A stretch of DNA of 64,000 nt, from positions 8,494,001 to 8,558,000 of the forward strand of contig CP158635.1 of the NCBI GenBank assembly GCA_050273025.1, written 5' to 3'. The translations under genes and the position numbers were made by a program. The notes under the pieces are model-generated. The model saw only the letters and a program-made list of their open reading frames with translations. It ran no database searches and was not told where the DNA came from. Below, piece by piece: positions 19,575-45,711 of the stretch (its first letter is position 1; the number at the start of each line of letters is the position of its first letter). This DNA comes from Cenococcum geophilum (Eukaryota).

Positions 19575-19670
19575 AGTTCTATCTTAGTTCTATCCTAGTT
19601 CTATCCTAGTTCTATCCTAGTTCTATCCTAGTTCTATTCTAGTTTTATCCTAGTTCTATCCTAGTTCTAT
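19575..19670. repeat. 11-bp minisatellite (AGTTCTATCCT)x~8
   Basis: Direct reading. Confidence 0.9.
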
Positions 19671-21070: not shown

Positions 21071-21532
21071 GATTATATTCTAGATATATTACTAATATAT
21101 CCTAGGTTATATTTTAGATTATATCCTAAATATATTCTAGATTATATCCTAGGTTATATCCTAGATATATTCTTAATTATATCCTAGGTTATATTCTAGA
21201 TATATTCTTAATTATATCCTAGGTTATATTCTAGATATATTCTTAATTATATCCTAGGTTATATTCTAGATATATTCTTAATTATATTCTAGGTTATATC
21301 CTAGATATATTCTTAATTATATTCTTGGTTATATCTTAAATATATTCTTAATTATATTCTAGGTTATATCCTAGATATATTCTTAATTATATCCTAAGTT
21401 ATATCCTAGATATATTCTTAATTATATCTTAGGTTATATCCTAAATATATTTTAGATTATATCCTAAGTTATATCCTAGATATATTCTTAATTATATCCT
21501 AGGTTATATCTTAAGTTATATCCTAGATATAT
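21071..21532. repeat. ~35-bp higher-order minisatellite built from 11-12-bp TATATCCTAG subunits
   Basis: Repeating TATATCCTAGGT-TATATTCTAGA-TATATTCTTAAT. Confidence 0.9.
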
Positions 21533-21949
21533 CTTTACGCAATTTAAAGTAGTTATATATTGTTAGTTATTTCTAATCTAAAGATTATATAATCTTAAAT
21601 ATCCTAAAGATAGGATATAGTTATAATATTATATAATTAAGTATATAAATGGCGATAATTTTAAATAATTCTGTTTTAAAACCTTATTAAGTGTGCGCGC
21701 ACGGTGTTAAAGTTCATCCAGTGTAAGATTTTGTAACGTGGCGTATTTCCACACTCCCGGAGCTTTTGGCAACACTGGCCGAGCTGTATACTCTACCAGC
21801 CTTTAGTCAGCTATACCCCATCCTGACACCCTACCATGCCATCGACTATCACCGATATGCTGTACTGCACAGTTGACACATTTAGAGTTGAAGAAGAAAA
21901 TAAGAATAAAGTATAACCGGGGGTGATTAGGCAAGCAATTGAAAGTGGT

Positions 21950-24900
21950 ATATGTATAACGGAAGGCCACGAGAGCTAGCGCTGCGCAACAGTGATTAAA
22001 GACCCTAGGAACCCCGCACGTATTAGGATAACTTATAGGAATGAAGTCGAGCTCTAATATGTAAAAGAAGCGGCTTAAAAAACCTTAGCACCTAGTGTTT
22101 AGGTGCTACGAGACCAGCTCTACCTAGTAAAAATTAATAACGCTAACCGAACAGCAGTTCTTAACTAGGAAGGAAAGATTTAAGATAAAGCAGTAGAGGT
22201 GCTAGGAAAAGAGAATAATGTATACATAGCCTAGATAGGATGGCTTAGTAAAAAAGACATAGGAAAGGCATATGGATTAATGGTTGTGTACATTACTAAA
22301 AGTAGTAAGGCAGTACGGTTGCTATAGAATTAATACTTTTATATTATAGGGGAATTAGCTTATATTAGAACCTATAAACCTAAAAGCGGTCTAACGCAAT
22401 ACTACTAGTGTTAGATACTAGGATATAAAGCATTTATATATATAAGACCGTAAGTATATGCTAGATGCGCTTAAGAAGGACATTATTATAATAACTGCCA
22501 AGGATAGATTCTAAAGTATATACCTTGCGGAGGACCATATAAATCGTTTAGTAAAAATTATTAAGTGCTTTATCCTACCCGCTATGTATAAGACACTTTA
22601 GGTACTTTAACTAAATATTTAAAAGTAGAGTATGGTATAGTAGAGCCTAATAAACGATGAACAACTAAAAGACTTTGGAGTGTTAGCAATATTAGAGCTA
22701 TACGCATAGAAAACGGACGATATGGTTGTAATAGTCCCTATAGGACACCCAAATTGGACTAAGGTAATACCTACGGCCTAGCGTAAAGAGAGGTGGGCGG
22801 TATGGAGCATACTATAGATTTAAAAAGATATTAAGGCCGTATAGGTGCTAGTATAATTGGTAAACCTTACCGCGGCGGTGCTGCGCCTTCCTAATAGATT
22901 AGTACTAGTGGTGTTAGTATATGTTAAGGGAAAGAATATAGAAGCACTATAAGATATAACTAGTAAACTATACTAACTAATTTAAGAAATATAGAATAAG
23001 ATAGGTATATAAACTGATATAATACTTATAGGAGACTTTAATTGGCACGATTAGCTATAGGGAGGAAATAACGTCTTGCTGGCGAGACAGGGAGAAGCCG
23101 ACCCGATTATTAATCTTATAGGAGATTACTCCCTGCGTAGCCTGCTGCCCAGGAGTATAAAAATATAGTAAAATGGCAACTATAAGATAACGATTGACCT
23201 AATCCTAGTATTAGATGAGCTAGTATCTATAATAGTAAAGTGCACTGTATATAAGACAGAACACGGATCTAATTATAGGGCAATTAAGATAATATTTAAC
23301 ATTGCGGTCCCTAAACGCGCTATAGAATAGAGAATGCTTTTTAAAAACGCACTATAGAATAAAATTAGGAATAGGATTACTACCGCCCTCTGTATTATCC
23401 TAGTAGGTAGTAGAGTATAGTAGTAAATAGACCGGCTTATAGAGGTAGTACTAAAGGCAGTTTACGCATTAACTCCGAAATCTAGACCGTTATTATATAT
23501 AAAAAGGTAGTGGACAATAAACCTTACGAAGCTCCGCTAAGTATATACTTACTAGAGAAACTGGGCAAAGAACTAACGCTAAGTAGGCTAGATAGTACTA
23601 GAACTAGAGCAATAAGTAAAGGAGGCCTTAAAGGAATACTATAATACAATACGGAAACAGAAAAGGACACATTGGAACAACTTCCTGGCCGATAATATAA
23701 ACATTTAGTAAGTAGCAAAATACCTTAACCTAAGCGGTAACTCAGCGTTTAATAAGATACTACTATTAGTAAGGATAGATAGATCTACTACAGAAGGTAA
23801 AAATAAGTAAGTAGCGGAGCTGTTAACTACATTCTTTCCCCCACTGCTAGTAGGAATAGAGGACGAGGGTCCATAGCCTTAACGAACGCTAATACTAATG
23901 CCGCGTCTTATAATGGAAGAGGTAAAACGGAAGATATTTGCGGCAAAGCCTTGGAAAGCGCTAGGGGATAATAGCCTACTAGCAATGGTGTGGAGGCAGA
24001 TATGGCTAGTAATAAAAAACAGGGTTCTACTCCTCTTTTAGACCTTACTAGACAAGGGCGACCTTCTTAACCAATAGAGAAATGCCAAAATTATACCGCT
24101 TAAGAAGCTAAATAAAGGAGACTATATAAAGGTAAGGGCATAGAGGCCTATCTCTCTGCTATTTACGTTAGGCAAGGTGCTAGAGTCTATAGTTGCTAAA
24201 AGAATATCGCACGCGGTAGAGACCTTTAAACTACTACCTATAAATCACTTCGGGGCAAGAAAGGGGCGCTCCACTAAATAGGCGCTACTGCTACTATAAG
24301 AATATATCTATAACGCGTAGAGGTCTAAGAAGGTGCTTAGCCTTATTAGCTTTAATATAAAGGGTATATATAACGGAGTATATAAAGAGAGGCTACTATA
24401 GAGGCTTATAGCAAGAGGTATACCGCTAGTGCTAGTGCGGTAGATTAATGCATTCTACTCTAATTGTACGGCGACTATTTTAGTTAACGGCTATACCTCT
24501 AACTAGCAATAGTTACTATAAGTAGGACTACCGCAAGGATCGCCGCTCTCGCTAATACTATTTCTCTTTTTTAACGCTAATCTAGTCTAGTACCAGCTTA
24601 ATGCAAATAAAGGCTTAATGGCGTTTGTGGATAACTATAATACATAAATTACAGGACCATTAGCAGCAGTAAACTGCGAAGGTATTTAGGCTATTATTAA
24701 TAGAGCAATAAACTGGGAGAAATAAAGCGGCGCAACGTTTAAAGGTGAAAAGACTATGCTAGTGCACTTTATAAGAAACGCGGACCGGACTAATACTACC
24801 CCATTTATAATTAAAGGAAAAACAGTTACACTAGGGTATACAGCTAAGATCCTAGGGGTAGTTATAGATATAGAGCTTTGGTATAAGCGACATATCACAA

Positions 24901-26540
24901 AAGCAGCTATTAAGGGCCTTATCGCAGCTATGGCACTAAAGAGACTCTAGATAGTATCCCCTTCAACTATAAGATAACTGTTTGGGGCAATGGTAGCGCC
25001 AGTAGTAGACTACGCCTTAAACATCTAGATGCACGCCTGCGGGGGTTCCGCTATAGCCGCAATAAATAGGGTATAAAAAATTGGAGCGTAGGCAATTATA
25101 GGAACTTTCCGTATAGTAGCTACGGTTATTAGGGAGGCCGAAGTAAGCATACGGTTAGTACGCGAGCGGCATTTAGAGAGGGCTACTAAGTTATAGGTTG
25201 ACCTTAACACGCTATATAAGACAAACCCACTCTTAAGGCTCTATATAAAGGTGCTCTAGAGGTTTACATCCCCACTGCAGAAGATAGCCTATATATATTA
25301 ATATACACCAACAGATAAGATGGAGGTTATTCAGCCCTACGTGGTACCACCATGGGAGGATTAACTGCCTATAAGCATTAACCTAGATAAAGATAGGGCA
25401 ACTGAAGCCGCCAACTCTATTTAAGGCATATAGATCGCAACAAGCTCATCCAGGAGGAGAGACATAGTAGGGATAGAAGGTGTTGTCTACGACACCCTTA
25501 GCAATACGCTAAATAGGGAAGCTGTTATATACTTAATTACACTAGGACTAAGAGCAGAATAGAACCTATATATAGCTAAACTGGCGGCAATATTAATGGC
25601 AATAAGGTGCTTACTACTAGATCTACAGAAGAAATAGATTACTATATTTACTAGTAATTAGGCAGCACTACTAGCAATTAATTAACCTAAGTAACAATCC
25701 GGCTAAATAAGTATTATATAGATCTATAACATAGCCCGCACGTTAAGGCAAAGAAGTAACTATTTTCTTATTATATAGGTCCCTTAAGGGGAGTTCAAAC
25801 TAGGCAAGAAGGTAAAAGTAGTAGCACGGCAAGCTACTACACAAAAACGCCTACCGCGAGGATAATAACACTAGGCTAAGGCTATAATAATAAACACCGC
25901 AAAAACAAAATAGTGGGGTAGGAAAACACTACTGGAAGGAGTAGGAAGGTATTTAAGAAAAATGGATATAGCACTACCAGGTAAATATACCTATAGGCTA
26001 TATAACTCCCTTAAGCAAGAAGAGGTAAATATGTTAGCCTAGTTATAGATAGAAATAATATAACTTAATAGGTATCTACACCGCATTAAAGCGGTAGAAT
26101 TAGATTAATATAATTACGGACAGGCAAGAGAAATAGTTAAATACTTTCTCTTTAGGTATATAAAATGGACATTATATTAAGAGCAAATGCTGCAGTAAAC
26201 AGATATAAGAAGAGGCAGCTTATCCTTCTATCTTAGGGGAAAGGCGTTAACTAACTCTAGACAGTAGACACCAAACGTGGACGCAGTCCGAGCGATAGTA
26301 AAATACGCAATAGCCACCAGACGACTTAAGGCAGAATTAAATTAATAACCCGTCCACCACAGTCAGAAACTCCCCCCCCTCCTCTATGCTTTAACTAACC
26401 CACACCACACACCCTTGTGCCACCAGCAGATCTCGCTTTAATTACTAAAGATAGGACACTAAATACTTAGAGGAACGGACCCTAAGACGACTTGCTACTA
26501 ACTACCCACGAGATCTCGTAGAATAAAGCATAAGTAAGAC
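21950..26540 (+). mobile_element. RIPped Tad1-like LINE, 5'-truncated in ORF1
   Basis: Relict CCHC knuckles (~22400-22550), endonuclease GDFN (~23030), KAPG (~23955), RT GLPQGSPLS (~24525) and FVDD (~24625), then RNase H-like and C-terminal Cys regions. Ends approximate. Confidence 0.9.
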
Positions 26541-26767
26541 TAGGAAGTACTAAATAAGGTAGATGTATGGGCTTGTATGAGAATATAGCGATATTAAAGG
26601 AAGCGAAATTATGTAATATAGTACTAGTGCCCTCTAGGCTTAGTGCCTCCGGGCGGAATAAACTTCATCATCATCCTGACACCCGAAGAAAAGATGAGAG
26701 AGAACGGATTACCCGCTTGGGAAGGGATAGGATGGAACACGTATATTGATGTTATCGCGGTGACGGA

Positions 26768-29007
26768 TCATTTCCCGTGCAGCATGTGCCAGCGCGTCCG
26801 TATTGCGCCCGGGGTCCGACCTGGGAAGCGTTTAAATATATCCTTCCACTCTATATCCATTCTATCTTTATATGCAAGCAACCGCTGTTCCTCCGACTCC
26901 GATCACGGTTTATACGTTCGTTGGTGGAAACGCACATCGTCTCTGCTGAATCCCTAATTGTTGCCGACAGCATAAGGTCTGTATTCGCCTGTGTCTTTCG
27001 CCCCATTCTCGTCCTCTTCGTCCCCGTCATCGTCTGGGTGGTCAGTGTCATGACTGGCGGCATCACTGTGGGGATTGCTCATCCGGCCTGTATTAAGCAG
27101 CGTTAAACTTCCACGAGTACGTGGGCCTGACACACTATCGTCGTATCGGTATCCCAATAGCATCCATGAATCCGGCGATAGCTGGGTCATACGGATAACT
27201 TTGCCTTCTCCACCGAGAAGCTTGTAATCTAGGGCCATCGGGTTAAGAGACAATTTTAAGTCACAGCAACGGACAATTGCTGTCACAATCGACGAGCCTT
27301 TTGGCACAGGGCAAAGCGTGAGATCAGTTACCTGATAAGCCACGTTGGCGCTGGTCCATAATTGTTGTTGGTCCATCTCCAGCCTTCGTTCCCGAAGAGG
27401 ATGTTCGTGGGGAGCAAGACCGAGTCGCGCTGTCCGTTCTGGGCCTAGACAGTTGCAGTGGTTGGGATGATGCTACTTGTCGCGATGTCCTCGTAGGCTT
27501 CGTGCTCCGGTCCCATGGTGTAAGAACAGTTCGTAATGGACTGCACCCTCTCTTCCGGACCGGACGATCGCTGGGTTTATGTCGTTGAGAAGTTGTCGCT
27601 AAAGCCCTCCAGGACACGCCAACGACCCGATTAAGTTCGTCCTCGTAGCTTTCCCCAACTTTACTACCGCTGCCTTTTCTGTTCTTTCCACGCCTACCCG
27701 AATCTAGATCGATATCTTAATCGCCGTCTATTCCTTTAAAAGGAGAGATGGATTGTCTCGGGGAATGCAGTAGCTATGACTGTCCCCCGGACATGTGCGC
27801 CATCGTCGCCATTCTCTTTATCGAGGAGGTCGTTTGGGGGCAGGCTTGGGGCGCCAGCATCATCGCCTTTGTTGTCACTGCCCGGAAGACCAGGGCTAGG
27901 ACGGTTGCTGGCTCCCGAAGGGGAAACTTGGCCGCTGGAGGTTGGCAGAGGCGTTGACTTGGGTGTGGATACAGGATCGAGTGTGAGGCTCTCTGCCCGT
28001 CGCTTGGCCAGTCTTCGCCGCTTCATCAAACGAGAGTCTTCCAGATTCGGTTGCGGCATAAGGTCCAGCACTTCTACCGAGGAGATTATCGTATCGGCAG
28101 ATAAAGCTCGTGTCCATTTGCGTGTTACCGATGGTCCGCCTGTCACGCCGATATCGTCCAGGAGAGGTTCGTCCTGCGCTTGCGAACTCTCTTCGAAGAC
28201 GTCAAAAATGGGCTCCTCAATTCTGGAACGCTACTCACTATGACGGACACTTTCTGTATCATCTATGGAGAGGGCGCGCACCCCAGCCGCGTCTCGATCG
28301 CCATGCTGTCCGGCACTGTATTCTTCGCTGCCAGCAGCCGCGTCGTAACCGTTCTCTTGATAGTCTGGCTCTCCGTTGTCAGGCTCGACGTCCGTTGTAC
28401 CGTCGCTTTCTTCGGCTGCATCGTTCTCCTCGGCTGTGTCGCTCTCCAAAAGCAAAGGAAATTCTATGGCCAATTAGTAAATCGACGCCGCGATTGACTG
28501 ACGTACTTACCTGGACTGCTTCGGTCAAAAACCCCGTTTATAGCCGAATTCGCCTTCGTGACGCCTGTAGCGTGGTCGGCCCCTCCGTCGTCAAGTGATT
28601 CCCGACCGGACTGGTAATGCTCTGGTTTCTCCCGAAAGGGGGCGGCACCAAGTCCATCGACGACGTCTACGCCCATATATCAGCTGGGTTCTGTTGGCTT
28701 GTAACGTTCAATGTAATACCTTGACGTAGCAAACTAGAAGGGTCCGCAACTCCGAATGGAGCGGGTACTCTAGGATTAAGGGGCGCGATGCATTGGAATC
28801 TGGCATTGGGAAATCGTCGATATTGAACCACTCTCCACTATCTCTGAAGGAGACGGCTTCGGAATGGTTGTGCTCCGCCGTCTTGGTTTTCGCATTTGCT
28901 TTGCTCTTAGATTTTGGTTTGGGCTTGGATGCCGAAGGAACGTAAGGAATATATTTCGTAGGAAAAAGCGAAGGGGCTAGTGAAAGGGTGCTGTAAGAGG
29001 AGGCCAT
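26768..29007 (-). pseudogene. Spliced gene with C-terminal Myb/SANT domain (Starship-terminal type), disrupted
   Basis: C-terminus reads KP*SESEEQRLLAYKDRMDIEWKDIFKRFPGRTPGAIRTRWHMLHGK. Canonical intron 28464-28510. In-frame stops at 28231, 26954 and 26903 (the first Myb Trp), plus apparent frameshifts at ~27400-27750. Confidence 0.8.
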
Positions 29008-30498
29008 TTTCGTGTGGCGATCTGCTGGCTTCTCTGGTCGTGAAGGAAATTGGAAAGATGCGGCTGTCTCTCCGGACTAAATGTCACTTTACGTACCGCC
29101 GACGACAACGCCGTATGAGAAGGAGGATTGTGAGGGCCCTGCATAAATGCCGCATATAGCGTAGAGACGGTTGTAGCGGGCAGTGCAGGGAGGCTGTCTG
29201 CAGGGAGAGTGAGGAGAACTTGAAGTCTGTCGGCCTCGGCGTCTCCGAGACGACCACATGTCGCGTTCGCAGGCGCCGTGGAAGCCCCGTAAGAAGAGCC
29301 TGCCTAACTTACTCGGCGATTGGCCAGTAAATGGTCGTTATAACCCGGTCGTGCGCATCTTTTAGCTGTCTAAGGATTTATATTACTTCGAACGAAACCG
29401 CCGATCGCCAGCTAATTCCTCGATCGTCTATTAACCCCCTTACGTAGGACGAGTCTGTATTGGATAACGCATGAATGCCCAATTCCCGCCGGCAGAGCCC
29501 CGTGCCGTCAGATGGTTGGCCTGCGGGGCTCTGTTCACCTCTTATAGCACGCCCGACGCCACCTCCGAGCTGTCAGCTGCCAGTTTCTAAGTATCAGCCC
29601 CCTGCTGGTTGTATCGCGATGTTACAGTAACGCCAAATGCCTTATACGAGGCGGAGCATCCTGCTGTAACTATGGCGTCAACGTGGGCGCCAAGAGGGCC
29701 GCATTAATGCGTCATGTGGGTGAATGGCCGTGTCCCCGCCTAAGGGAGAGGGCATAGAGCCAGGAGCTGGACGGTAGCTGGGCCAACGTATTCAACCGAA
29801 GGAGTAGGATGCAGTACTCGAGTGTCAGAGCTGAGACAATGGCGTAAGCTCTGTGCATTCGTTCGCCGAAACCAGGAATAAGGCAGTGCACAGTAAATGC
29901 TATCGGCGAGTCCGGAGCAGGGGAGAACGAGTTGCGCGACCGCCGGCGCCGGGGTTTGCTGAGCGGCAGGTGGGAGCTTCTCCCTTCCGCCGCAGCTGCC
30001 GCTAGCACAGGATGAGCGAGCATCTTGCGCGAGAGGGAAGAGACCTTCCATGGAGAGGGGAGAGTGCGTGAGTGCAAGAGAATGGAAAGCCGGTGGGCCG
30101 CCAAACGCTTGCGGATGCGGGCGCAGAAGCTTCGACAGCAGCCATCGCTGGGAGATGAAACGCTGGACAGCCCAAATCCGCATAGGGGTGAAATGACAGG
30201 GACGAGGCAAGGCAGTGCCATGTTGGATGGCGACTGAGATTCGAAAAAAATGCCTCACAAGGGATTTACTGAGGCCCAATGGGAGCAGCTGGAGCGGATA
30301 GGGGGCGTGCAGACGGAGGGATGTGAGTAGAGAGAAAAAGATGAGGAGAGGGAGGGAAAATGACGGCGAAGGCAGGGCCTTTTATGGTGGTCGTCAAGGC
30401 CAATTGCCGGTTCGGGCGTAACGCGAAAACCGTAAGCGAGGCGCGGATTACCCAAACGGGGAGCGTCTATTTCCTGATGCACACTTGCCGTCTGATTG

Positions 30499-32200
30499 TT
30501 TACTTTATATACTATAGGAAAGATTTTACGCGGAGTATATATGTCTAAAGGGGGCCTTAAGCAGTTAATGTCAAATAATACCTATTAACTTAAGCCAGAT
30601 AAGGTTATTAATATAGCTAGGAATAGGGTTAATAACCTTTAGAAGCGGATATTTATAAGTTTTATTACAGACGCCATCTAATACGCGTATCCTACTGTGG
30701 TTAATAGTATATTTAACTTTAACGCGGATATTAAATATCCGCGTATACTAGTGGTTAATATTCTCCCTTATAGAAGGACAGAGTATATAACTCTAGAACC
30801 TATTCTAGATAGCGAGGCTTTTATTAACGGCAACTATCGCGTAAAAGAGAATATCTTCTTGGAATAACTATAGTATAATTATAAAACCGCTTTTAATAAC
30901 TGGCTTTTTTTAGTATATAGAGATTAGAAAACCGTAAAGCTTATTTAATTATATAAAGAGGAGCAGGTTAAGGCGAAAGGTACGTATAATAGCTATAAGT
31001 AGGTATTACCTATTCTAGGGCTATGGTATATATAATTAAACTTCCTATATATAGTTATGCGTACGTTCTATAGGGGTAAGGAAGCCGCGTAGTAGTTTTT
31101 AGCGCTTTATACCTATATAAACCACCTAAGACGGCGTAATATTTCTAGAAAAAAGGCCCTATTTTATTATATAGAAGAGCTAATTCTCTAAAGCTTTAAC
31201 GCTTATATTATTATATCGTTTTTACTCTATATCTACGACAAGTATAATATTAAGGTAGATAGTAAGGCTAAGCGATATATATAAAACCTATCTCCGCAGT
31301 AATTTCTAGAGTATATTAAGGATATCCGCATAGCGGCTTTTTTAAGAGATATATACTATAATATAAATTAGCGCACGTCTAATTATTTAGGGCTATTTAC
31401 CAACGTATATTAGCTAGTAGCGATATCGTCCTCTACGGATATATTAAGCTTTACCGCTAGTAACTATAATATAGAGTTCTTTAATTATATTAAGTTCCTA
31501 TAGGTTATTAATACTTATAAACTTCTAAAATATACTATTAAGTATGCGGATATTGGACTACTAAAGCGTATAATCCCCTATCTTTGCTTATACTTTTCTA
31601 GAAGCTTATTAAAGAACTATATATATAATATACTAATCCTATAGCAACTAGTTAGAATAAGCGCTTATAATCTAGTGCTTTAATAGGCTATCCTTACCAA
31701 TAGTTTAGTTAACCTCTAAAGGCGGCTAAATAGCTTCTTTAAGACGGATCGCCTTAATAAACTACTAAATCTTTAACTTAAGGAGTTGCTTTAGATATAT
31801 AGGAATTTGACGTTTGGTATAGACAAGCTATTTAAGTAGAGTATTCTTATAATAAATTATACTAGCGCGCTCCGCGATATTTTTAAGTATATATTTAGTA
31901 AGCGTATAAACAGCAAATATACAACTAAGTCTCTAGCGCTAGATATCCGCTATCTTATAGATTAGATTAGGAAGGATTTAATTATATAATATATACGGCG
32001 CTTAGCGGATTTTAAAGCTCCTTCGCTTCTATAGCGCGGATATAAGAAACTTATAAAGGACGGCGTAAATACATTTAACGCCTTCCTATTAACTGCAGCC
32101 GGTTTACTATTTAATCCCCTTATATACAACTTTGGTAATACTAATAAAAATATAGAGGTACTAAAAGAAGCTGCTGAATATATTTATATAGTTTATTGTC
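30499..32200 (+). pseudogene. 5'-truncated, RIPped DUF6589 (Academ-type) transposase
   Basis: De-RIPped reading gives FTSYTTGKILRG..GLKQSM (30499), LVYGDQKT (~30910), WVLPIPGLWH..LNFL (~31000), YADIGLL (~31543), KNYAY and ILANSLVNLQGR..SFFETDRLNELLN (~31690-31770). Confidence 0.8.
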
Positions 32201-33628
32201 CTAATGTTATACCTATTCCTCTGCAAATATATATATTAGTTAGTATATAAGTTGCTTAATAAATGCTAAAAGTAATAGTAATAGTAATATATTGTTTTTG
32301 CGGATATACTTCTATTATAAGCGGGTTATCTACGGATTTACTATATAACCCTTATAAGGACGGATTTAATAAAGCTATAGATAATATGCTAGAGGACTTT
32401 TAAATACTTAGGCTTATAGTACGTTTCTATCTTAATATATTAAGCGAGTTCTTTTTATTAATATTAATTCTAGACAGTATATAATCTTCTTAGTGCGTAG
32501 TATATAATATAGTAATTAGCTATTTTATAGCGCGGATATATAAATATCTTCATCTTACCTTATATGGATATCTTCATCTTACCTTATATGGCTATCTTTA
32601 CCTTAGCTTATATGGATATTATAATATTAATTAAGTATATCTATTAAATATAAGGCGGAGACTTGATTCCTATATATATAGTAGTAAAAAGGTAAGAGCT
32701 ACTATTTTATTATTATAAACCCGCAGTAACAGCTAACTTATATTTACTTATTTAATATCTAGTAGCCTAGCATTACGTATAAATGCAATAATACCACGCC
32801 TTAGGAATAAAAGCTTACCTTTTATCTTACTTAGAGAATCTCCAAACTTATTTAACCGGCGATCTATAGCTTAAATATCTTTCGCTATATTAATTACCCG
32901 TTTACAAACTATATTAACACGCGTGAAAATAGTAATTACTAAATATACCCTAACAGATTCCATGCTAGCGAAAGTAGTAGCAGTAATAGTAGCACCTGGC
33001 ATGCTAGCAATTAAAAAAAGAAGTAGAGAAGCGGCGGTAGAGCGGGTGCGTCTACGGCTGCGTGTACTACTATAAGTGGGAGTCTTAATAGGGGGGGAGG
33101 TCTTAGTGGGGGGGAGAGGCGTAGTGGCGCGGGTAGGGATAGTGCGAGTACAAAGCTATACGGATATCAATAATATCCGTATTGTTAAGATATAGATATT
33201 ATACCTTCTTAGTAGGTGTTCCAGCCAGGCTATTAGCAGAAGCTAATTGCGCACGTTTTTTGCGCTAAGGTATAACTAGCTCCAAATTTAGTAAGCTTTC
33301 CTATATATATATTAGCTGACAGAATAATAGTATTATATTAGCGTATACTATTCTATATAACCTACTACTAAAACAATATCTTAAGCACGTACCTCTAAAA
33401 AATGCCTAGAGTTCTACTTGTAAACGCGATATTTATAGCTATACTTCTCGTATAAAGTATATAGCGGATTACGCAGCTTACTAAAGCTACCCTTAATATT
33501 TTAAATATATATTAATATCCGCTAGCGAGCTTCCTTTGTACTTTCCTAAATACTAGCTTTTAGAGTGTACTATTTATTCGCTAACGGCACTTAGATAGGA
33601 AGGCGCTTATTTATATTAGGAGTACTAT

Positions 33629-36600
33629 TATAAGGGGATCTTATGGGTAGGGGGCTATAAGGACACGATTGGAATAGGATAAATTAGTAAGAGAGACAAA
33701 TCCTTAAGGAGGTAAGGCCTCTAGGATTGTAGAGACTATATACTACGGGCACGTGCCTCCGGCACGTGACCGGCGACTATCTAAGGGGCGTCCGGGGGTT
33801 GTCCTAAGGGCAACCTAAGGTGTCCGCAATAATATCCCTTATATTGCCCCCCCCCTTCTTGCAGTCGGCCCCCGATCGCTATTACCTTACGGTAAGGAGA
33901 TTATAAGGGCTCGTCCTAGAAGAGGTTCAGAAAGATATTAGAGAGGTGTTAGTATGCCGCTATATATTATCTATCTATCTAACCCCTGCTTTAAACTCCT
34001 GAAAAACCTTAATAAGGAAAAAATATAACTAGAGAAAAGACGCGAGGATTACTAGGAGACCTATTAGAAGCCTACTGGAAGCATACTAGTAACTACCTAG
34101 GCTAATATAGGGATTTTTATATAACTCTGCTTCTAAGCCTTTATACTAGTCTATAATTAATTATAAGTATTATAGGCAATTTAGTGTTCTAGTATAGTTC
34201 CGTAGAACCTTTTAGTATAGGATTTAATATATAGAGCCTTAGCTTACCGTTATCTTTAACTGCTAAGATATAGTCTATAATTCTTTCTTATAATCCTTTT
34301 CTTATAATCCTCTACGTTACTAACGTATTACTCCCGTATTTGCCCTTAGGCTATTAGATACGGTTAAGGTATTAATTAGTTAGTTAAAGAGACTTATCTC
34401 TTAAGATTTAGTATATATGCTTTTAAATCTAGTAGTCCTATGCTGTATATTTGGCGTAGCTCTACTGCCTAGCAAATAGGGACATTTTACAATAGCAATT
34501 GTAGCTATTATACGATTGTTAAGAACGTCTATAACGTTGTTCTTTAATACTATAGTATCATTTTAGGTCTAATTTAACCTATATACGTCTTTGATTTAAC
34601 GTCTTAATTGCCTTCCCCTAGCCGCGTAGTTAGTTTTTATAAGGAAGTAATAGTCAAATAACTTATACGCGTGTTTTCTTCCTTTTAAATAGCGCTATTG
34701 TAACGGAGTTATATTAGTAAGGTTACGGCTATTTACTAAAAGGGTAATGGACGGTAAAGTATAAAGATACTTTGCTTATTAAGCTTAATCCTTTTCCTTA
34801 GCACCTTACTTCCCATTATTAACCTTTGTCTAATTTAGACGTATCTTTAATATATTATTAAGATTTTCTTCTTTTTCATTATTAATTTAATATACCTCTT
34901 TGTTCTCCTACTAACTGCTCTTTTAAGTAAATTCTATAGCGTATCCTAGCCCTACCTTTGCATATAGAACCCTAACCCCCACTAACCCGTAACTAGTGCT
35001 AGTCCTACCTAAATAATTTTACCTATACGTCTTTAAAAGACTAGAAATCTAATAATAGGATTCTGGAGGCTTGTAATAAGACGCACTATATTAGATCTAA
35101 TACCTTTAGTCCTTATAATTAATGCATGCGTACTAAAAGCGGTAGTTATATTAAGGTGGGTTTTCTATTCTTAATAGATTTCTATTGCTAACTTTAAGCT
35201 TTAATAGCCTAGGCCTAAGTGGCGACGTTCCTTTAATGTCCTTAACTACTATATTACCCGGGCTCTCTCTTATTCTAGCGTAAATACTAAATAACTTAGC
35301 CGAATTTGAGACTATACTACGGCCATCTATACTACCTATAATTCCTAGTAAGCCAGCTAGTAACGCCTAATACGAGAGCAAGGTTAGTATACTGAGGATA
35401 GGGTGCGTAATAGGGGTAATAAGAAGAAGGTTGCTGTCTACTATAGGAAGGAGTTTACGCATATACGTTAAGTTTTGAAAGAGCATAATATAATAAGGTA
35501 TTAGGTAGGTTACCCTTCGGGTACCTAGCGGATAGGTAACTAATAGTTGCTGTAGTAAGGTCTTAGTGGTTCTAGATTATACTAGCTAGCTAACGTCTCT
35601 GTTTATTCTAGGCTTAAATATATCTTTATTAACTATAAGCTTACGCCGCAAGAGCTTCGTTGGTATTGGTTTAGACTTAATATTAGTATTAAGCGTTTAA
35701 GAGTCTCTACTCTAGCTACACCTCATTATCCTACCCCTGTTTTTATGCCTACTTATACGCCTACTAAGGCATCTAGATCCCATTCTTATTAGCCATTACT
35801 TAGTGGCCTAATAGATACTAATCCTACTCCTAATAATAATAAGGCGTAGTGGCTTTTCAGATTAGGTATTTATAGTTTAGACTTTTAGGATTCGTTTTTG
35901 TATATAGTAGCAATTAAGGACCTCGATTAGGTGCTTAGGAAGGCCTTAAAAGGCTTTTAAGAAGGGCTTAGAAGCCCTAGGAACAATGTTCCTAGTATAG
36001 ATTAATAAATAGGAATACAATTCTAGTAAAATGCCCTATTGACTCTATGCTATATACGTAAAAAGGCTAAGGACCTGTCCTACCTTAGGCTATAGCCCTA
36101 TCCCTATGGTTTCCGGAGCCTGTCCGTTCCATATCCGATTTAACCTATTTACTCTTTTCGCGAGCTTTCTTTATAGGTCGCGATAATACCGTAGTATTAA
36201 AGCGCTTTCTATAACTTATAGATTGTGGACCTTAGTCCCAATATTCTTTTAGAATATCTTTATAATAATTAAGGTGATCCTCTAGTTCCTATATAGAGTC
36301 CTTAGCGGGCTAGCCTAGCTATTTAACTTTAAATTAAAGCTTATTCTTAATAGACTTATAGTATAGTATAGCTTTAACCTTATACCGCTTGCCTACTACC
36401 TTAGGGTGTTTAATTAGGCCTAAACGGAAGTTCTTTTCTAGTAGTAGTCTATACTATAGCTCTAGTAGGTTTATGTGAAACACTAGATATATATAGGCCA
36501 TAAATAGGGGTAGCTAAAGACAATAGGCTAGCTTATTAATTCATTCCTTGACTTAAAAGGGACCTAAGTATCTTATATTGAGCTTCTTTGATAGTTAACG

Positions 36601-39600
36601 GGTTTTAATATTTGTTAAATATAATAGAACCTCATCGCCTACTCCGAAATGCTTGTTCTGGTACTTATAGTTATACTAAAGTCTTTATTACTCTTAGGCA
36701 TCTTATAGGCTCTGCTTCGCATACTTCTATTACTCCTCCCATTTCTAGAGGTATCCTTATACTCTTTAGTGGATGTCCTTTAACTTCCTAATAGGATCCT
36801 ATAACTAATTATACGGCCTTAGCCAGTAATTATTAGGTATACTATTAAACCTAAATAGTTAAACGCTATACGTAATCTGGATTAGTGCATACTTATATAA
36901 TATATATTACTTTAAATTATAAGCGTACTCCGTATATAGAAGTAGCTTACACTAGTTATCTTGCTAGTAGTTTAAATACATTTATAGGTAAGACTCCAGT
37001 TCCTAGTTCTAGCGTTCCATTTACCTATCTATCTATAGGTAGAAAGCCGTACTATACTAGTGGTCTATCTTTAAATAAAAGCATAGGTCCGACCAGTATT
37101 AACTTATAAAGATGCTGCCCCTATCAGTAATAATAGAGTATAGCTAATCTACTTTAAGAAAGCATTTCTCCTTAATTAGGTTGGTGAGCTCTTATATATT
37201 AATTGTTTTATTAATAGAAAGGTATTAGACGTACTTTAAAAACCTATTAATAAGTACAAGGACTAAATTGTATATTTATCCTTAGCTATCTTTAGATGGC
37301 GGGAGATCCGTAATAAAGTCTATAGCGTAATATTACTATAGCTTACTAGCGGGGGGAACTGATTTAAGTAGACCCTATAGCTTATACCTACGGATCTTAT
37401 ATACTTAATACTTCTCGCAATAGCTAATATACTTCTTTACTTCCTAATTAAGCCTTAGCCAATAGTATTTGCGCTAAAGTAATTCCACTATTTTTACTTA
37501 ACTATAGTGGCCGCCTAGGGGATTATCGTAATTCTTTATAAGAATCTTCTATCGTAGATTTGCTTCTTATGGCACCTAAACCTTACTACCTTTATATAGT
37601 AGGCCCATCGGGTCTAGTTCCTAATGGTAGCGCCTAGTAGCTTCCTTTCTATTACATTTCCAGTCTACTTTTGCATTAAGGATGGCATAGGAAGCGTCCC
37701 TCCATTATACCTTACAAATAAGATTTATTAAACTTTTAGATAGTTCCTGGGTAAAAGCTATTTTGTCCTATACTACTCTAAGTATAAGACTAGATAGTAT
37801 TATAGATCTTATACCTCTTTAATACGCGTACGTTAGGAAGGCCGCTACGAGGTTAAAGTCCTTTAGTTATTATAGGGCTCTGAGTTCCAATTGCTCTATA
37901 GCTTTGCTATTTATTTAAGGGGATAGCTTAGCAATTAGAGATAGTATATTACTAGGTTCCGAGAATATATTAGGGACGTCCTATTTAGGTATATTCGGAC
38001 CCTTATTAGTAACGGACTGGGTACTAGCTAGAATATTAGTAGAAACCAATAGGGCTTATACTACCTAAGACTTAGTATATAGAGCTATAGGTGCTTAAAC
38101 ATCCTACACCCGGAGCTTATTCTATAATATAGGGAGTAAAATATCTATTATCTGTTTTCCTTCTCCTGTTTTAAAGCCTTTAGTATAGTTTAGCCGTCAT
38201 AATAGTTTATTGGCAGGGTTGTTTTCCCCTAGCTTATATTTAATCTTAAAATTAAATCGCATAAGCTTCTCTACCTATTTAGCTTATTAAGGTATAAGCT
38301 CCTTTATAGTTATAAAGTAGCGTAGATTATAGTAATCTAAGAGTATACGAGTGGTATAGCTCGCGTGCTTAAGGTAGTATCGCCACTATTTAAAGCAGTT
38401 AACTATAGCTAGCAGTTCCTTATCGTGGGTATAATACCTAACTTTAGGTCCCTGGAATTTTCTATTATAAAATACTATTAGTCTCTAATGGAGCTAGGTA
38501 GCGTCTAGATGCCTATTAGGTTATAGTAGGATACTAGTAAGGGTAAAATTTAATATATTAGTAATTATTATTAATAGCTAATCTAGGTTAAAATGCCGCA
38601 GTAATAAAGCTTCCGTAAACTTTATATAAAGTTCCTAGAAGGCCTTCTAAACCTTTCCAGGCTATAACCATAGCTTATACTATTTAGTTAGTCCCTTTTT
38701 AGTTTTCTTCCTTACCGCCTTTAAGCTTTTTACTCCTTAGGTTAGGTCTTAGGAAGCTTCCGTAATATAGTTAGATAGGTATTAGGCGACGTCTAAGTAG
38801 TTATAAATAAAGCGCCTATAGAAATTGGCAAAGCCTAGGAATACTTAAACATCCTAGTAGCTCTTTAGCTCCGGCTACTCCTAGATTATTTACACCCTTA
38901 CTAGGTCTATAATTATACCTATAAGCGTTATAATATACCCTAAAAACTCGACCTGCTTAGTATTAAAGATATACTTTAACGCCTTAGCGTAGAGGCCCTA
39001 ATTATCTAAACGTTCCAGTACTTTACGGACGTGTTACTCGTGTTAATCCTTGTCTTCTAAGTAAATTAAGATGTTATCTAAATAGATAACGTATATACGG
39101 TTAACTAGTCCCCCTAAGGCTTTATAAATATATAATTAGAATATTATAGGCGTATTAGCTAGCCCAAAAGGCATTACTAGATATTTAAAGTGGCTATATT
39201 AGGTCTTAAAAGCGGTCTTTTACTTATCCCCTTCTTTAATACGGAGCTTATAATAGGCGTCTTATAGATTTAACTTTATAAAGATCTTCGCCCTAGATAG
39301 TTAATCTAGCATTTTACTAACTAGTAGTAGTAGGTAATAGTTCTTAATTATAATCTTATTAAGACCGCAATAGTTTACGCATAGCCTTATAGTTTTATCT
39401 GGTTTTAGGATAAAGAGGATTAGCGCGCCTAATAGTGATTTACTAGGCCAGATCCATCCCTTTTTTAGTAAGCTATTAAAGTACTCCTATAGGATCTTAA
39501 GCTCTTTATATAAGAGGTTGTAGATAGAAAGGTTTAGCGGTTACTTGCCTTCTTTTAGATTAATTATATAATTATACTCCAAGTTCTGCGGTAGGACTTT

Positions 39601-42542
39601 AGCTCTCCTACCCAAAAATACCCTTAATAAGTCCTTTAGGCCTACTAGAATATTTAATAAATTAAGGTCGCGTTTATCCTTTATATTATTATTAGGTAGA
39701 TTCTAAAGCTCCCTTAAGATACTTACGGGCAGCGTTATACGCTATAGTAGTTGCTTATACATAGTTGCCACTATATATTAAACCGTTTTATGCGGTAGCT
39801 AGTAAAGGGTAGGGAACTCCTTAACGCAGCATTTAAGGTGCCGTAGTATACTCTCTATATATTGCTTAAGCCAGAGTAACCTATAGCGGTTAAAGTATCT
39901 TATAAGATCCTTAAGATCGCCGCCTCCCTATAATATCTCTGTAACCTATCCGGTAGTTCCCTATAAGGTTTCCGTTATAGAGGGGTTATTACCTATACTA
40001 GGCTCTATACCCATCTTGCTATTAAATAGGGGTTAGATCTAATACTTCTTTAGGTATAAAGCGTATACTATTTCGCCTAAGGCTATATTCTCTAAGATGT
40101 CCTTTAGGCTTATTAGTAATATACGCCCTTTTAAATCTTTATTATTCTACTATTTAAAGGCTCTAGTTTTAAAGCGTATTTTAAAATCTACTTCCGCAAG
40201 CTAAGGGTATTTAAGGATAAAGTCGTAACCTATAAAGTTAGCCGCTTAGAAGGGTTACGGGCTAACTACCTTAGTGCGGTTATATATATTGGTTACTAAT
40301 ATTATAAGCTTATAGGTACTATATAGCTTAATCTAATGCTTATCTAGGAAGCCTATAATAGGTTTCCGCCACCTTTATAATAGGATAAGTTTATACTCTT
40401 TTACTAAATTATATTATATAAGATTAATTTCGGCGCCGCTATTATATAGTGCTTAGAACTATCGTACCTTACCTATAGGGAGTATTATTTCTAGCTTAAT
40501 AGTAATATAAAGAGTCTCTCCTTTTATATCTTGCCCTAGTTATAGTTAGGAAAGGTCCATAACTAGGGCTTTTCTTTTTTTAAATTATTAGTACGGTTGT
40601 TGCCCTACTTATTTTTTTAATAGAATTTACCTCTAGAGTTTTCTCTTAACTTCTTAGAGTGTTTTCGTAAAGGTGTTAGACGGGTATTAGGTTAACCCTA
40701 GAAGTCTTTTCCATTATTTAAGGTTCCTAACTTTAACCCTTTTAAAGTTCTCTTTAAGAACAGCTTCTTTAAAGGTTAGGTCTGCCCTATATTACTACTA
40801 AAGTACCCGCACCTCTAGTAACCCCCTAGCTTCCTATTAAAAGAGGTCTAGTTCTTTACTGCATCCTTAGCGTTTAGAACCGCTCGTTTAAAATCCGTAT
40901 ATGCGGTAATCCGTAGTAGGGCTCCTACGCGCTTTATTTCGTCACAAATTACTAGCTTAATTCTAGCCTAGATAAATCCGATCTTCTCCTTCTTATAAAC
41001 GCTGCCGTCCTTATTTTTAAAGGGCTTTAAATCCATCTATTAAGCATAAGTTTTTATAAAGTTTATAAACTAGCGGAAGTCTTAACAGTCTAGCTATATA
41101 CTATTCTAGAATTGTTCTATATTGTTATATTATATAATATATAGATTTTAGGTCTAACCCTTTAGGAAGGTCTATAGCTATAGCTATGTTATAATTTGCT
41201 CTTTATTAAGTTAATTAAGCGCGATCTAGTTTAGTAATTGGTCTTTAATCTTACTAATAATCTAGCGTATACGCTCTTTAGTATTATCTTATATTATTAG
41301 CATTTTAAAGAAGTTGTCTACCTCGTAAACCTAATCGTCTAGCTATTAGGCGTTAGGTTTATAACGAAGTTCTAAACTACTAAAGGCCTTAGCTAGTCAG
41401 TCTATATCCTTTTTCCGTTTATTATATAAGTGCCTCTTTAAGTCTTCTATACCTCCTTAGGTAGGTACTAAATAGCCCCTAGGAAGCCCTTAGCCTTAAC
41501 TAGGTTATAAAAAAATTTGCTTAGCTTAGATTAAACCCTACTAGATATAAATTTGCCCTTAAAGGGTTCTAATATATTTATTAGTAGCTTCCTCCCGCAT
41601 AGCTTCCAAGAGCCTTATAATAGCTTCCTAATATCCGTCTTAAAGGAGATTAGTATAGGGCTCTTAACCTTCCGAACTTGGGCCTAAAGAAGCTCCTACT
41701 ATAGAGGTAGTATTAGCACTAGTAGCTAGTGCGGGTTTCCTAATAAGCCTTAGGTCTTAAGTTAGTGTTTAGGTTTAGTTTTCTAAAGGGGTAGGCCTAC
41801 TTAGCTTGTAAGCAGTCTATATACTACTACTATACTAATTATAGGCCGGTGGTCTTCCGGGAGGGTTCTAGTTGGGTCCCTAGTCGGACGTATTAGTGTA
41901 TTCCTCTAGCATTTCTAGCTTAGGGGAAGATCTTAGGGTTACCTCTAGCACTTAATCTTCTAATTAGCCTAGGTAGGGCTAAAGGGGTTCCAGTTACTTT
42001 CTGGTAGCATTATAACTATTATAAAGGGTATCTGCGTTTTCCTTAGCGGTAACCGTAGGTATATGAGAGTCTTTAAGCTCCTGGAGCATCTAGGTATTAG
42101 GGCTTATTCGGCCGTCTTACCTAGAGGGTTATATTGTCGTAATCTCTTACTATTAGAGGGACCTTCCTGCCTTTACGCGACGGCTTTCTATAAGGTATCT
42201 ATAGAGTTTCCATTTAGGTTATCGCGAGATTTTAAGAGAGAATGGTAGTTATAAATAAAAGATATAAATAAATAATCTAGTCCTTAAAGCCGACTGCCCT
42301 TCTAAAAAAGAGTAGGAAGGATTTAAATATAAGGGGATCTTATAGACAGGGGGCTATAAGGACACGATTGGAATAGGATAGATTAGTAAGAGAGACGAAT
42401 CCTTAAGGAGGTAAGGCCTCTAGGATTATGGAGACTATATACTACGGGTACGTGCCTTTGGTACGTAACCGGCGACCATCTAAGGGGCGTCCGGGGGTTG
42501 TTCTAAGGGCAACCTAAGGTGTCCGCAATAATATCCCTTACA
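33629..42542 (-). mobile_element. Full-length RIPped Ty3/gypsy chromovirus, copy 1
   Basis: 215-bp LTRs 33629-33843 and 42328-42542; TSD ACTAT; PPT after 33843. RT VIYLDDILIY (~39060-39090). Chromodomain YEVEAIL..KVKWLGW..EDSTWEP (~36240-36385). PBS resembles the LTR-internal CGAATCCTT (self-priming type). Confidence 0.93.
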
Positions 42543-43949
42543 ACTATAGAGATTATAAGGGCTACAGAGATTACAAGAATTAGCATTATTAAGGTCTTTA
42601 CCTTTATCGCTATTTAAAGATTTGCTATCTAAAGGAACCTTATATATAGTGTTTAGGTTACTATAAGAGGTAAATTAGTAGATAAGACGCTAAAATAGTA
42701 TAATTAATATATACAATTTAATAGCTATCTTAAGCTTTATATTTATATTAGCAGCCTTTTTAGCCTACTTTTTAAGAAATAAAGATAAACGAGCCTTATT
42801 AAGCCTCTTCTTAAAAGTATTAGGCGGTGGTAGTAGAAAGGCGGATAGTAAAGTAGCCTATAGCAAAGATGTAGGTAGCGGAAAGGTATCCAGTAAAAAG
42901 GTAAGCAGGTTTTTAGCGGATTTCACTTTATCCTTATTATTGTTGTCTACCAAACCTTATAAAGAGCGCTTTAGTATATATTTCCTAAAATTATATTAGC
43001 TATAGGTATAATTTAGTATTAGAAAGCTTACTCTCTAGGTAGAGATTCTAAAGGATTAGTAAAATAAAGAGCGTCCTTAAAAGCGTCCTTAATCATTTTA
43101 TTATTAATATCGCGCGTATTAAGTTCCTTAACTAAATAGCTATTAGACGTATTTAGAGGTATAAAAAAAGGCATTATAGATAGTAGTATACTAATTAATA
43201 GTAGATAAAACAATAATAATAAAGTTTATAGTGCGTTATTATAAGGTACAGAGGTTAATTAAAGGTAAATATCCACACTATAGATTTTATTGAATTAGCT
43301 TACTAACAAGTAATTACTATTATAGTGACTTACCTTAGTAAATATCAACTACCTTATATACATTTATTTGTAACGCGTAAATCCTTTATAGTTAAGTTAC
43401 TACTAATTAAAGTAAGTAGGCGCCGTCTAGTTAACTTACGAAATAATATTAATATAGAATTACCGCTTAGCTAAGGTGCTAGAGAAGGGTTATAAGCGGA
43501 TATTAGGTTTACTTAGTAAACGAATTTCTCCCTTTTAAAGTGCGTAGATACGTCCTTTTATTTTCTCTTACTGCGAGGCGGATCTAATATTGGCTAAAAG
43601 GCTTAAGGTATAGTAGTCTAAGAAGAACGGATAATATCTAATTAAGAGGATTATAAGATACTTAAACTAAATGGCTAATATAGTATAAGTTCTACGGGTT
43701 TTAGAAGCTTTAGGTATAAACCTTAGTATCCCTCTAAATAAGAATCTAGTAAACTATTTAAATGCGTATATAGATATTAATTAGAGCTCTACCCTAGTCT
43801 TAATTAAGTTAATAAATAAGTAGAACGCTAAGGAATATTAAATACTAACCTATTAAAGTTGCGTTATATCTAAACCGAGGGCGGAAATTAAGCACTAGGC
43901 TATAGGTTCTAAGCTACGCTTAGTTTAGAAAGCGGGCCGCATCTAATTT

Positions 43950-44400
43950 AGAAGGTAGGGATTAAGTATTAGTACGCGAATTCTAAACTGTACCTAGTTT
44001 AGAGGGCGGAGATTAAGTATTAGCCTATAAACCCTAAGCCTTAAAATTCCCTAGGAGCGGAGATCTAGTATTATAACTTAAATTCTAAGCCTTAGGATTT
44101 TCTAGGAGCGGAGATTTAATACTACGTTACAAATTCTAAATTTCCGGATTTCCTACTACTTAGGAACTAGTACTATGCCGCAGATATTAAACTTTGGAAT
44201 TTTTCGTAGTTAGAGATCTAGTACTATATTCTGAATATTAAACCTTAGGCTTATCTAAAAGTTAAGACTTAGTATTATACTATAAGCTCTAACACTTAGG
44301 CTGCCCTAAGGATTTAGATTTAATACTGCGCTATAAGCTTTAATATCTAGATTACTCTAGGGGCTAAGACCTAATACTGCGCTATAAGCTCTAATATCTA
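43950..44400. repeat. Degenerate ~51-bp (17-codon) tandem repeat, ~9 units
   Basis: CGGAGAT/GATTTAATACT-like anchors recur every ~50-51 bp (44008, 44058, 44109...). Confidence 0.65.
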
Positions 44401-45711
44401 GCACTTTAGCTGCGGCCTATTTATACTTATATTGCTACTACTATTAGTAAATAGACATATCTGCGTCTTTTTTAAAGTTATACTACTAGCTAGTGCAGTA
44501 CTAGAGGGGAGGATTGGCTAAATAAACTGGCTTAGAGTTATATTAGCACTAGCTATATAAGTAAAGGTAGTACTTTTTACTTAAGTAGAGTGGCGGGAAG
44601 TACTAGATTTACTTCTAGTTAATTTTACTAGCTAAAAGGGAGCTAACTCTATAGTAGCTAATATATTGGCCTATAGGTCTACGCATTAGAATAAGCTTCC
44701 TAACTATATTAGCGAGCCACCAGGCAAAGTATGCGGTTATTAAGCATTAATATATAATTAATCGGACGAACTATTTAAAAGCCGCTATAAGCGACGAGCC
44801 TAGGTTAATAGATAAGCTACTAAACTACTATACTAACCCTATAGATATCCGTCTACACCCGCCGTATAGGCTAATTCCCTTCTAGTATCCTACTACTAAG
44901 ATAGTGTAGAGGGTGCTATTATGCAGCAGTTTGCTATCACCGTTAACACTAAATTACCGCAGATTGCTGCCGACGATAGACTATTACTAGTAGGACTATT
45001 AACAAGACCACGTTAATTTGTAATAACTATATATGGAGATCGCTATAGAGATTAAACATCACGCTATGGATTAGCGCTACCTATATTTAAGCTAATAATA
45101 CTATTAGACTTCTGCTATAAAGCTTAAAGGCTATACTATAGACTAATACCTAGGTCGTTCTAAGATATAAACTAAAGTAGCGAAGAATCGTAAGGAGCTA
45201 TATTAAGAAGCTATTAAGAATAATAGAGGCGCTATAGAGAGTTATTAGGATGCCGAAGGCCAAGTTAAGGGTACTACGGATATATACTAGACAATTTTTA
45301 AGCGGGCAGCCGTATATCTAGAGTATACGAATATTAAATATCTAGTTGTTAAAATGGCTGCAATAGAGTAGCATACTTAGTCTAGGACCAGTTTGCCTAT
45401 AAGTCTTAGGTTAATACAAGCTAAAATATTTAAGATTCGGTTATATCCGTTTGCGAGCTAGATGCTAATAATAGCTATAAGGGCGGTAATACTTTGGTCT
45501 GTATCGATTAATTAAAGCTAGCACTCCTTATAGTTAATATACTAATAGGTCCCTATTGACCTACTAATAGTAAAGGCGTCTATAACGAACTTCTAGATAC
45601 AGTAACACGTCTACTAGATTGCGACGCAACCTATAAGACGCTAGTACTAAAGTATTGCGTTTCTTCCTTATAAATAAAGCGGATAAGCCCCTTCTACTAG
45701 CCCTATAAAGT

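Follow-up and report, generated by a model that had tools for sequence, protein, structure and literature searches.

Background

Starships of the Hephaestus family, described from Paecilomyces, Aspergillus and Penicillium (PMC10104507, PMC11162782), integrate at TTAC(N7)A according to the experiments that defined this site, and their direct repeats are presented there as a match between the element ends and the target (PMC10104507); in the starfish supplement, the curated Hephaestus repeats of two A. fumigatus elements are given as TTTACA and TTACAA. Some Starship families are reported to insert into AT-rich DNA and into transposons (PMC11162782), and genes with a MYB/SANT domain only are placed, at the edge opposite the captain and in the opposite sense, in 32% of the non-redundant Starship-like regions of one survey, a share made up of 23% that have a captain too and 9% that have MYB/SANT alone by the figures of that survey (PMC12256816). 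Here we describe a locus of Cenococcum geophilum that lies in a stretch of 64,000 nucleotides (GCA_050273025.1, contig CP158635.1, positions 8,494,001 to 8,558,000 of the forward strand), called the window below in the sense of the whole stretch analysed, in which a GC-balanced island that is free of repeat-induced point mutation (RIP), with a Myb pseudogene in it, meets a broken transposon with a DUF6589 domain. The island, at 26.6-30.5 kb, may be what is left, after decay, of the distal end of an old Starship-type element, the one without the captain, a reading that is put forward tentatively.

Transposon nests of ascomycetes are made up of AT-rich RIPped blocks, unique islands, nested insertions of long terminal repeat (LTR) elements and long interspersed nuclear elements (LINEs), truncated copies and sharp RIP borders. 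The present locus is unlike such ordinary nests in that its break falls at a motif known as a recombinase target and goes together with a gene of the edge type. With the Hephaestus Starships, as far as they are described in the two reports on them (PMC10104507, PMC11162782), it shares a TTAC(N7)A where the element would have integrated, a short repeat common to end and target (GTTTAC at this locus), and an un-RIPped low-copy element adjoining RIPped DNA; it differs from them in that no captain, left end, terminal inverted repeat (TIR) of the element or empty site was seen at the locus, in being a decayed relic and in its Dothideomycete-like host. With the distal-edge MYB/SANT genes, in the features given for them (PMC12256816), it shares a Myb-only gene that lies near the edge, points inward and belongs to a multi-copy family whose counts track those of captains in 8 species. 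Unlike the published genes, that of this locus is a pseudogene with five stops, and it is likened to them by arrangement and domain content.

A joint inside a DUF6589 transposon

An exact 32-base pattern taken from just right of the border was found in six contigs (L001-L006; one metagenome). In all five copies of the transposon that read through the site (L001-L004, L006) the alignment to the window begins at 30498; these copies read ...GGTGA GTTTAC TTTATATACT..., and the window reads ...CTGATT|GTTTAC. Because all read-through copies align from 30498, the joint is placed at 30497|30498, with a 6-bp ambiguity (30498-30503) formed by the string GTTTAC, which is common to the island end and the intact transposon and is a candidate direct repeat or microhomology (feature 30498..30511, plus strand). 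An earlier note on this DNA had drawn the border between un-RIPped and RIPped DNA at 30499, which falls within 2 bases of this joint, and had read TTAC-TTTATAT-A there; that string is indeed present, at 30500-30511, and has the form of the Hephaestus integration site, TTAC(N7)A. The full motif also occurs at the homologous site in two of the five sister copies (L001, L002).

The sixth contig, L005, is orthologous to the window and carries an identical joint between island and transposon, i.e. an occupied site, with 98.1-98.9% identity in the island (27771-30497) and 96.2% in the transposon part, the differences being nearly all transitions. The joint is therefore old, being common to a genome 1-2% diverged. 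An ENA-derived protein, P0186, starts ~15 bp inside the island end. If an insertion made the joint, the orthologous empty site would read ...GGTGAGTTTACTTTATAT... (same transposon copy, nested LTR element and right flank). Transduction of the island by the 3' end of a LINE was considered and rejected, since there is no A-rich tail at the joint, no 5' part of the transposon left of the LINE that lies beyond the island, and L005 has the island without the LINE neighbourhood.

To the right of the joint, the window carries at 30498..33628 (plus strand) the first piece of a RIPped copy of an ~11-kb TIR transposon. This copy, 80-89% identical to L001-L004 and L006 by blastn, is without the initial 1,246 bp of the element. 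With stops read as X, the reading frame that begins at 30499 matches the DUF6589 domain at ~30649-31791 on the plus strand (PF20231, 91.2 bits against a cut-off of 27, E 7.4e-26, profile positions 25-368 of 410). A HMMER search of 1.84 billion representatives returned 454 relatives of this frame at E at most 0.001, and the homology of many of them begins at query residues 2-5, which are the first codons past the border; the long relatives (750-1062 aa) have 260-430 extra residues N-terminal of DUF6589, with no other Pfam domain there, and therefore the frame of the window begins mid-protein, as had been claimed. In the other copies the 5' terminus of the transposon lies 1,228-1,266 bp upstream of the breakpoint (5/5 copies), and in the intact ones protein homology extends 90-107 nt upstream of it, so that the copy in the window lacks conserved coding sequence as well as the terminus. 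The proposal that the landing site was another transposon thus stands in so far as the change in composition falls exactly where a transposon copy is interrupted within its transposase gene; that an insertion produced the joint is what we infer.

Composition of the island

The window is a mosaic of GC-balanced stretches and of AT-rich stretches with the dinucleotide signature of RIP, for which TpA/ApT above 0.89, (CpA+TpG)/(ApC+GpT) below 1.03 and copy differences in the form of transitions were taken as criteria. From ~26.6 to 30.4 kb a GC content of 0.48-0.65 goes with a negative RIP composite index; from 30.6 kb rightward the GC content is ~0.30 and the composite index is +1.1 to +1.6, the two dinucleotide indices right of 30600 being 1.3-1.8 (TpA/ApT) and 0.17-0.29, as in RIP-mutated repeats. 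The copies of the DUF6589 transposon are near-perfect when compared in purine/pyrimidine coding (1157-1230 of 1246). The island itself, a candidate terminal relic of an inserted element, is delimited at 26620..30497 (~3.85 kb, no strand assigned) by GC content, RIP index and the L005 ortholog. A Pfam scan of its 11 open reading frames (ORFs) gave a sub-threshold HTH_29 as the sole match (E 0.053).

The earlier view that the left 30 kb of the window are GC-balanced Starship cargo proved wrong: they consist mostly of a RIPped LINE and Crypton-like repeats, together with three long un-RIPped ORFs, one with an F-box, one with Pol_BBD and one with no Pfam match. As to the distribution of the island, the share of its sequence words present in sequencing runs is 0.95-0.99 in 4 runs of the probable source sample, 0.51-0.64 in 5 runs of 3 other samples, 0.67 in a root metagenome and at most 0.16 in 10 runs; in 4 runs that bear the same species label it is 0.00-0.04. 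Such low shares might represent a presence/absence polymorphism of the island, word shares alone being no evidence for it.

The Myb pseudogene and the terminal block

A gene on the minus strand with a C-terminal Myb/SANT domain had been claimed 1.5 kb inside the border, and such a gene is present at 26768..29007: its ATG lies at 29007, 1,491 bp inside the joint, its stop at 26768-26770, and it is transcribed inward. From 29007 to 26771 the sequence is colinear with residues 1-672 of the 679-aa P0154, which belongs to a multi-copy family of Dothideomycete proteins (~650-680 aa) that end in a Myb domain, and the Myb/SANT DNA-binding repeat itself, at 26771..26902 (minus strand), matches two Pfam families (PF13921, E 2.2e-6, 28.2 bits against a cut-off of 22.9; PF00249, E 4.8e-6, 27.0 bits against 24.4). 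The gene is a pseudogene. Five in-frame stops lie in conserved blocks (28231-3, 27774-6, 27717-9, 26954-6 and 26903-5), the last of them being the codon of the first Trp of the Myb repeat, which reads TGA (26903-26905), and changes of frame occur near 27790 and 27360. L005 has the stop at 28231-3 as well, and the gene was therefore dead before the two genomes split. In L005 all sequence left of 27771 is lacking, the Myb repeat included. This contig also carries a 727-bp AT-richer insertion in the pseudogene (L005 oriented 2975-3701, corresponding to 28621-28629 of the window), which is flanked by a 9-bp target duplication, is not in the window and may be a non-autonomous element.

When the search for homologues was restricted to longer proteins, 35 were obtained, 24 of them with a source name. 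All but one of the named proteins come from Dothideomycetes (Lizonia 6, Bimuria 5, Zopfia 3, Phaeosphaeriaceae sp. 3, Lentithecium 2 and one each in four further species), the remaining one being a weak match from Geoglossum (E 9e-4). Most homologues are 43-62% identical over ~82% of the query, and the C-terminal Myb is their sole domain. The presence of 6, 5, 3 and 3 paralogues in four Dothideomycete genomes makes the family multi-copy, and in the 8 species for which both figures are available its counts go with the captain counts of starfish, as far as that resource gives them (Spearman 0.84, p 0.0095). The possibility that the Myb gene is part of the DUF6589 transposon was rejected, since, of the 6 loci, L005 alone is matched by proteins of the Myb family.

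Between the Myb gene and the joint lies a small ORF at 29715..30221 on the minus strand, to which P0189 is an exact match. The block at 29.7-30.3 kb has diverged relatives on two other JGI/IMG contigs, P0187 (79% identity, 42% of the query) and P0188 (42% identity, 66% of the query). These relatives mix reading frames, and the block is therefore probably conserved at the level of DNA.

Origin of the joint

Under the reading that is placed first, a Starship-type element, that is, a giant transposon moved by a tyrosine recombinase, would have integrated by site-specific recombination into TTAC(N7)A, 1,246 bp inside a resident ~11-kb DUF6589 TIR transposon, and would have left GTTTAC as a repeat common to the element end and the target. 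The inward Myb gene 1.5 kb from the edge would then be the distal-edge gene of the element; LINEs and other repeats would later have invaded and eroded the element, which, if real, would be dead at its right end. Such a history supposes that the joint arose by insertion, that the captain and the 5' part of the transposon would be located leftward, beyond these 30.5 kb of the window, and that the Myb family would be linked to Starships. Taken singly, the positive signs are weak: a target core within the microhomology, an A at the right distance, an inward multi-copy Myb-only first gene and a conserved terminal block. In combination they make a Starship-type insertion somewhat likelier than a chance deletion joint, and the island is for this reason assigned, with less than even confidence, to the distal end of such an element, narrowly ahead of a joint made by deletion through microhomology. 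Of the right end of a Starship that had been proposed for this border, the breakpoint, the motif in two of the five sister copies and the inward Myb-only gene hold good; the captain and the 5' part of the transposon are missing from the 30.5 kb to the left.

Several observations weigh against this reading. No DUF3435 was found among the 136 ORFs of at least 64 aa in the whole window, nor in six-frame scans with read-through of 5400-8900, 13880-15130, 17200-21500, 21500-26770 and 30499-36000, and the 30.5 kb left of the joint showed none of the further gene families that go with Starships. The 1,246 bp that the transposon lacks are absent from the 64 kb, blastn giving only weak AT-rich matches of 60-69 nt; a RIP-tolerant Smith-Waterman alignment in purine/pyrimidine coding scored 27-33 for this part, shuffled sequence reaching 26-34 and the positive control 705-1230. 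A match at 19007-19075, obtained by blastn with three of five queries and suggestive of a 5' part hidden in the hyper-AT block at 17.6-21.5 kb, was not upheld by the purine/pyrimidine alignment. The test that the earlier note had set, a DUF3435 captain upstream together with the missing 5' half of the DUF6589 gene, thus turned up neither within the 30.5 kb left of the joint, which is as far as the window reaches. The un-RIPped DNA next to the joint is confined to the 3.85-kb island, with RIPped repeats on either side; the Myb gene is dead, and the correlation of its family with captain counts is confounded by overall repeat load. Three of the five sister copies (L003, L004, L006) read TTAA and not TTAC at the site, and TTAC(N7)A is a frequent motif, with 201 matches on both strands of the 64 kb (mean of shuffles 246). 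For Hephaestus, enrichment in a single class only has been reported (PMC11162782). The 3' end of the same transposon copy is truncated as well, at ~45698, with no Starship-like sign there, and plain decay therefore yields such ends at this locus. The absent captain, the transposon-filled interior and this second, unrelated truncation pull in the same direction, and the 6-bp common string fits microhomology-mediated joining equally.

Ordinary decay is accordingly a serious contender, itself held short of even confidence: a deletion or rearrangement in the transposon nest would have removed adjacent DNA along with the first 1,246 bp, the ends would have been rejoined through the GTTTAC microhomology, the island would be left-over low-copy DNA with a dead gene of the Myb family, and TTAC(N7)A would be coincidental. 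Besides the missing captain and 5' part and the three sister copies that have no TTAC, this account draws on the loss of the last ~2.7 kb of the transposon beside a 5'-truncated LINE, on the different erosion of the island in L005 (which ends at 27771 and has the extra 727-bp insertion), and on the density of the motif, which in the 3,131-bp transposon part has 11 matches on the plus and 8 on the minus strand, or one per ~165 bp over both strands. It needs, on the other hand, three joint coincidences, namely a 6-bp microhomology, a TTAC within it followed by an A at +7, and an inward multi-copy Myb-only gene as the nearest gene, and it leaves unexplained the diverged relatives that the block beside the joint has elsewhere. 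With 7 positions possible for the joint, a motif would start at one of them by chance in ~2.5% of cases if one strand is counted and in 4.2% if both are. It seems improbable that the island is the end of a different, undescribed low-copy Myb-bearing mobile element inserted into the DUF6589 transposon, possible candidates being a Harbinger-like two-gene element or a tyrosine-recombinase element not of the captain type. The multi-copy Myb family with diverged paralogues inside genomes and the terminal block conserved on other contigs would suit such an element, Harbinger elements are described as pairing a transposase with a Myb-like protein (PMC12256816), and Crypton-like tyrosine-recombinase repeats occur in the same window. 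Against it, no transposase partner is found in or beside the island, the Myb proteins are ~650-680 aa long with a C-terminal repeat and no other domain, and the Crypton-like copies are separate 3.4-kb RIPped units beyond a LINE. Since RIP affects repeats only, any border between a transposon and host DNA has a composition such as that seen here, and the natural terminus of a RIPped transposon in unique host DNA, or an artefact of assembly, could look the same at first sight. Both are refuted: the true 5' terminus (TIR TTACCTCAG..., 9-bp duplication) lies 1,228-1,266 bp upstream in all five other copies, and the same joint is found in the independent metagenome contig L005 and in the ENA-derived P0186.

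Returning to the Starship-type end, a further proposal, which at present appears rather unlikely, is that Starships of a Dothideomycete lineage target TTAC(N7)A and have the Myb gene and the ~1.5-kb block up to the joint as a conserved module of their distal end. Until now this type of target has been associated with a family for which enrichment in one class alone is described (PMC11162782).

The DUF6589 transposon

The sister copies define the transposon itself. From L001 (oriented 3571-14558), and also from L002, L004 and L006, it is an element of ~11 kb with TIRs and a 9-bp target duplication. The ends are inverted repeats with TIRs of ~20 bp, TTACCTCAG.AGCT.AGAC, the copy in L001 is surrounded by the 9-bp duplication GGTTTCAGC, and L002 has two copies head to tail, 9 bp apart. 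An internal duplication was noticed in L001, where 6788-8811 is similar to 8818-10699. A second recognisable protein domain of the transposon was not found on either strand.

The earlier note had called this transposon Academ-type. AcademH elements have target duplications of 9-10 bp and AcademX elements of 3-4 bp in the account given in PMC10045372, AcademH being defined by a helicase (Kojima 2020, as cited in PMC10045372 and PMC10799480), and in 2017 Academ had no Pfam counterpart (PMC5751038). On these descriptions, AcademH and the DUF6589 transposon are alike in the 9-bp target duplication, which falls in the 9-10 bp range of AcademH, in a size of ~11 kb, in low copy number and in their presence in fungi; they differ in the helicase of AcademH, since no DEAD or Helicase_C match was obtained on either strand of the 8.3-kb remainder of L001 (oriented 6300-14558), in copies that are RIPped and in which DUF6589 is nevertheless detected. 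At 30499-36000 of the window there is likewise no Pfam match other than DUF6589. The label is at most tentative: the target duplication fits it, the lack of a helicase match does not.

Within the window the transposon copy is interrupted at 33629..42542 (no strand assigned) by an LTR retrotransposon, identified by self-blast, with LTRs at 33629-33841 and 42328-42540 and a 5-bp target duplication; it is missing from the sister copies, whose alignments share 5 bp at 33628/42543. The second piece of the transposon follows at 42543..45698 on the plus strand (blastn to L001, L002 and L004), with an extra ~976 bp at 44023-44997 and without the last ~2.7 kb, which are absent from the window (purine/pyrimidine Smith-Waterman scores 25-33). 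Its 3' break is adjoined by a RIPped 5'-truncated LINE at 45699..47797 (plus strand; RVT_1, E 6e-17, ~45957-46619), which is in turn interrupted by a second LTR element. This second LTR copy, at 47798-56585, lies in a LINE; both LTR copies are RIPped, 89-91% identical and 8.9 kb long, with LTRs of ~213 bp.

Other features of the window

The island is preceded on its left by a RIPped LINE (non-LTR retrotransposon) at 21500..26620 on the plus strand, RIP indices being positive to ~26600; with stops read as X, Pfam recognises in it an endonuclease at ~22905-23285 (plus strand; Exo_endo_phos_2, E 1.3e-8) and a reverse transcriptase at ~24135-24794 (plus strand; RVT_1, E 4.2e-14). It is followed leftward, at 17600-21500, by an extremely AT-rich block (GC 0.19-0.28) with no Pfam match in six frames and with tandem-like repeats at 21067-21533. 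None of the contents of the left 30 kb, which comprise the Crypton-like repeats, the LINE, the F-box ORF, the Pol_BBD ORF and a 458-aa ORF with no Pfam match, is a Starship marker.

The Crypton-like units are three adjacent head-to-tail copies of a 3.4-kb RIPped repeat (5471-8877, 8875-13884 and 3-272, minus strand) that carries NDC10_II (PF16787, E 5.3e-18) at ~6719-7561, a fold that we take to be that of Crypton tyrosine-recombinase transposons. Such a tandem arrangement would fit circles integrating into an existing copy. One of these copies contains an un-RIPped insertion at 10165-11615 (GC ~0.48), which resembles a small LTR-type element of recent origin: direct repeats of 196 bp (10165-10360 and 11420-11615), 99.5% identical and ~1.06 kb apart, form its borders, and its ORFs have no Pfam match. 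The 458-aa ORF (3600-4973, minus strand) is intact and is surrounded at 2990-5450 by inverted arms of ~320 bp (2990-3311 and 5146-5450; 67% identical), copies of which lie 43-46 bp upstream of the 5' end of the DUF6589 transposon in L004 and L006. The Pol_BBD ORF (620-2557, minus strand; 646 aa, E 4e-7, gag-pol-like as in retroelements) and the F-box ORF (15126-17201, minus strand; 692 aa, E 2.5e-6) are also intact and lie in un-RIPped DNA. In GC-normal DNA right of the transposon nest, a DUF6594 gene (PF20237) spreads on the plus strand at 60533-61525 over two adjacent ORFs (E 2.5e-19 and 3.8e-27), being split by an intron or a frameshift.

Implications

Under either of the two principal readings the locus is of a known kind, at most a decayed member of the Starships with an unusually well-defined target and at least a case of routine decay; if the deletion reading is true, it is an ordinary piece of decay in a transposon nest. 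The general picture of Starships is unchanged, since Starships that insert into transposons, that target TTAC(N7)A or that have MYB/SANT genes at an edge have already been published. A small by-product is that DUF6589, a Pfam family not yet characterised, now has an ~11-kb transposon with defined TIRs and a defined 9-bp target duplication. If the Starship reading is true, the locus would provide a dated, base-resolved distal end in a Dothideomycete, with a target known from sister copies and an edge gene of the Myb type with many paralogues, and it would help in studying the functions of the MYB/SANT gene and of the terminal block; should the two also form a module, a base-resolved distal end together with five paralogous 'empty' targets would make the binding sites of the Myb protein, and its role in the transposition of large elements, approachable.

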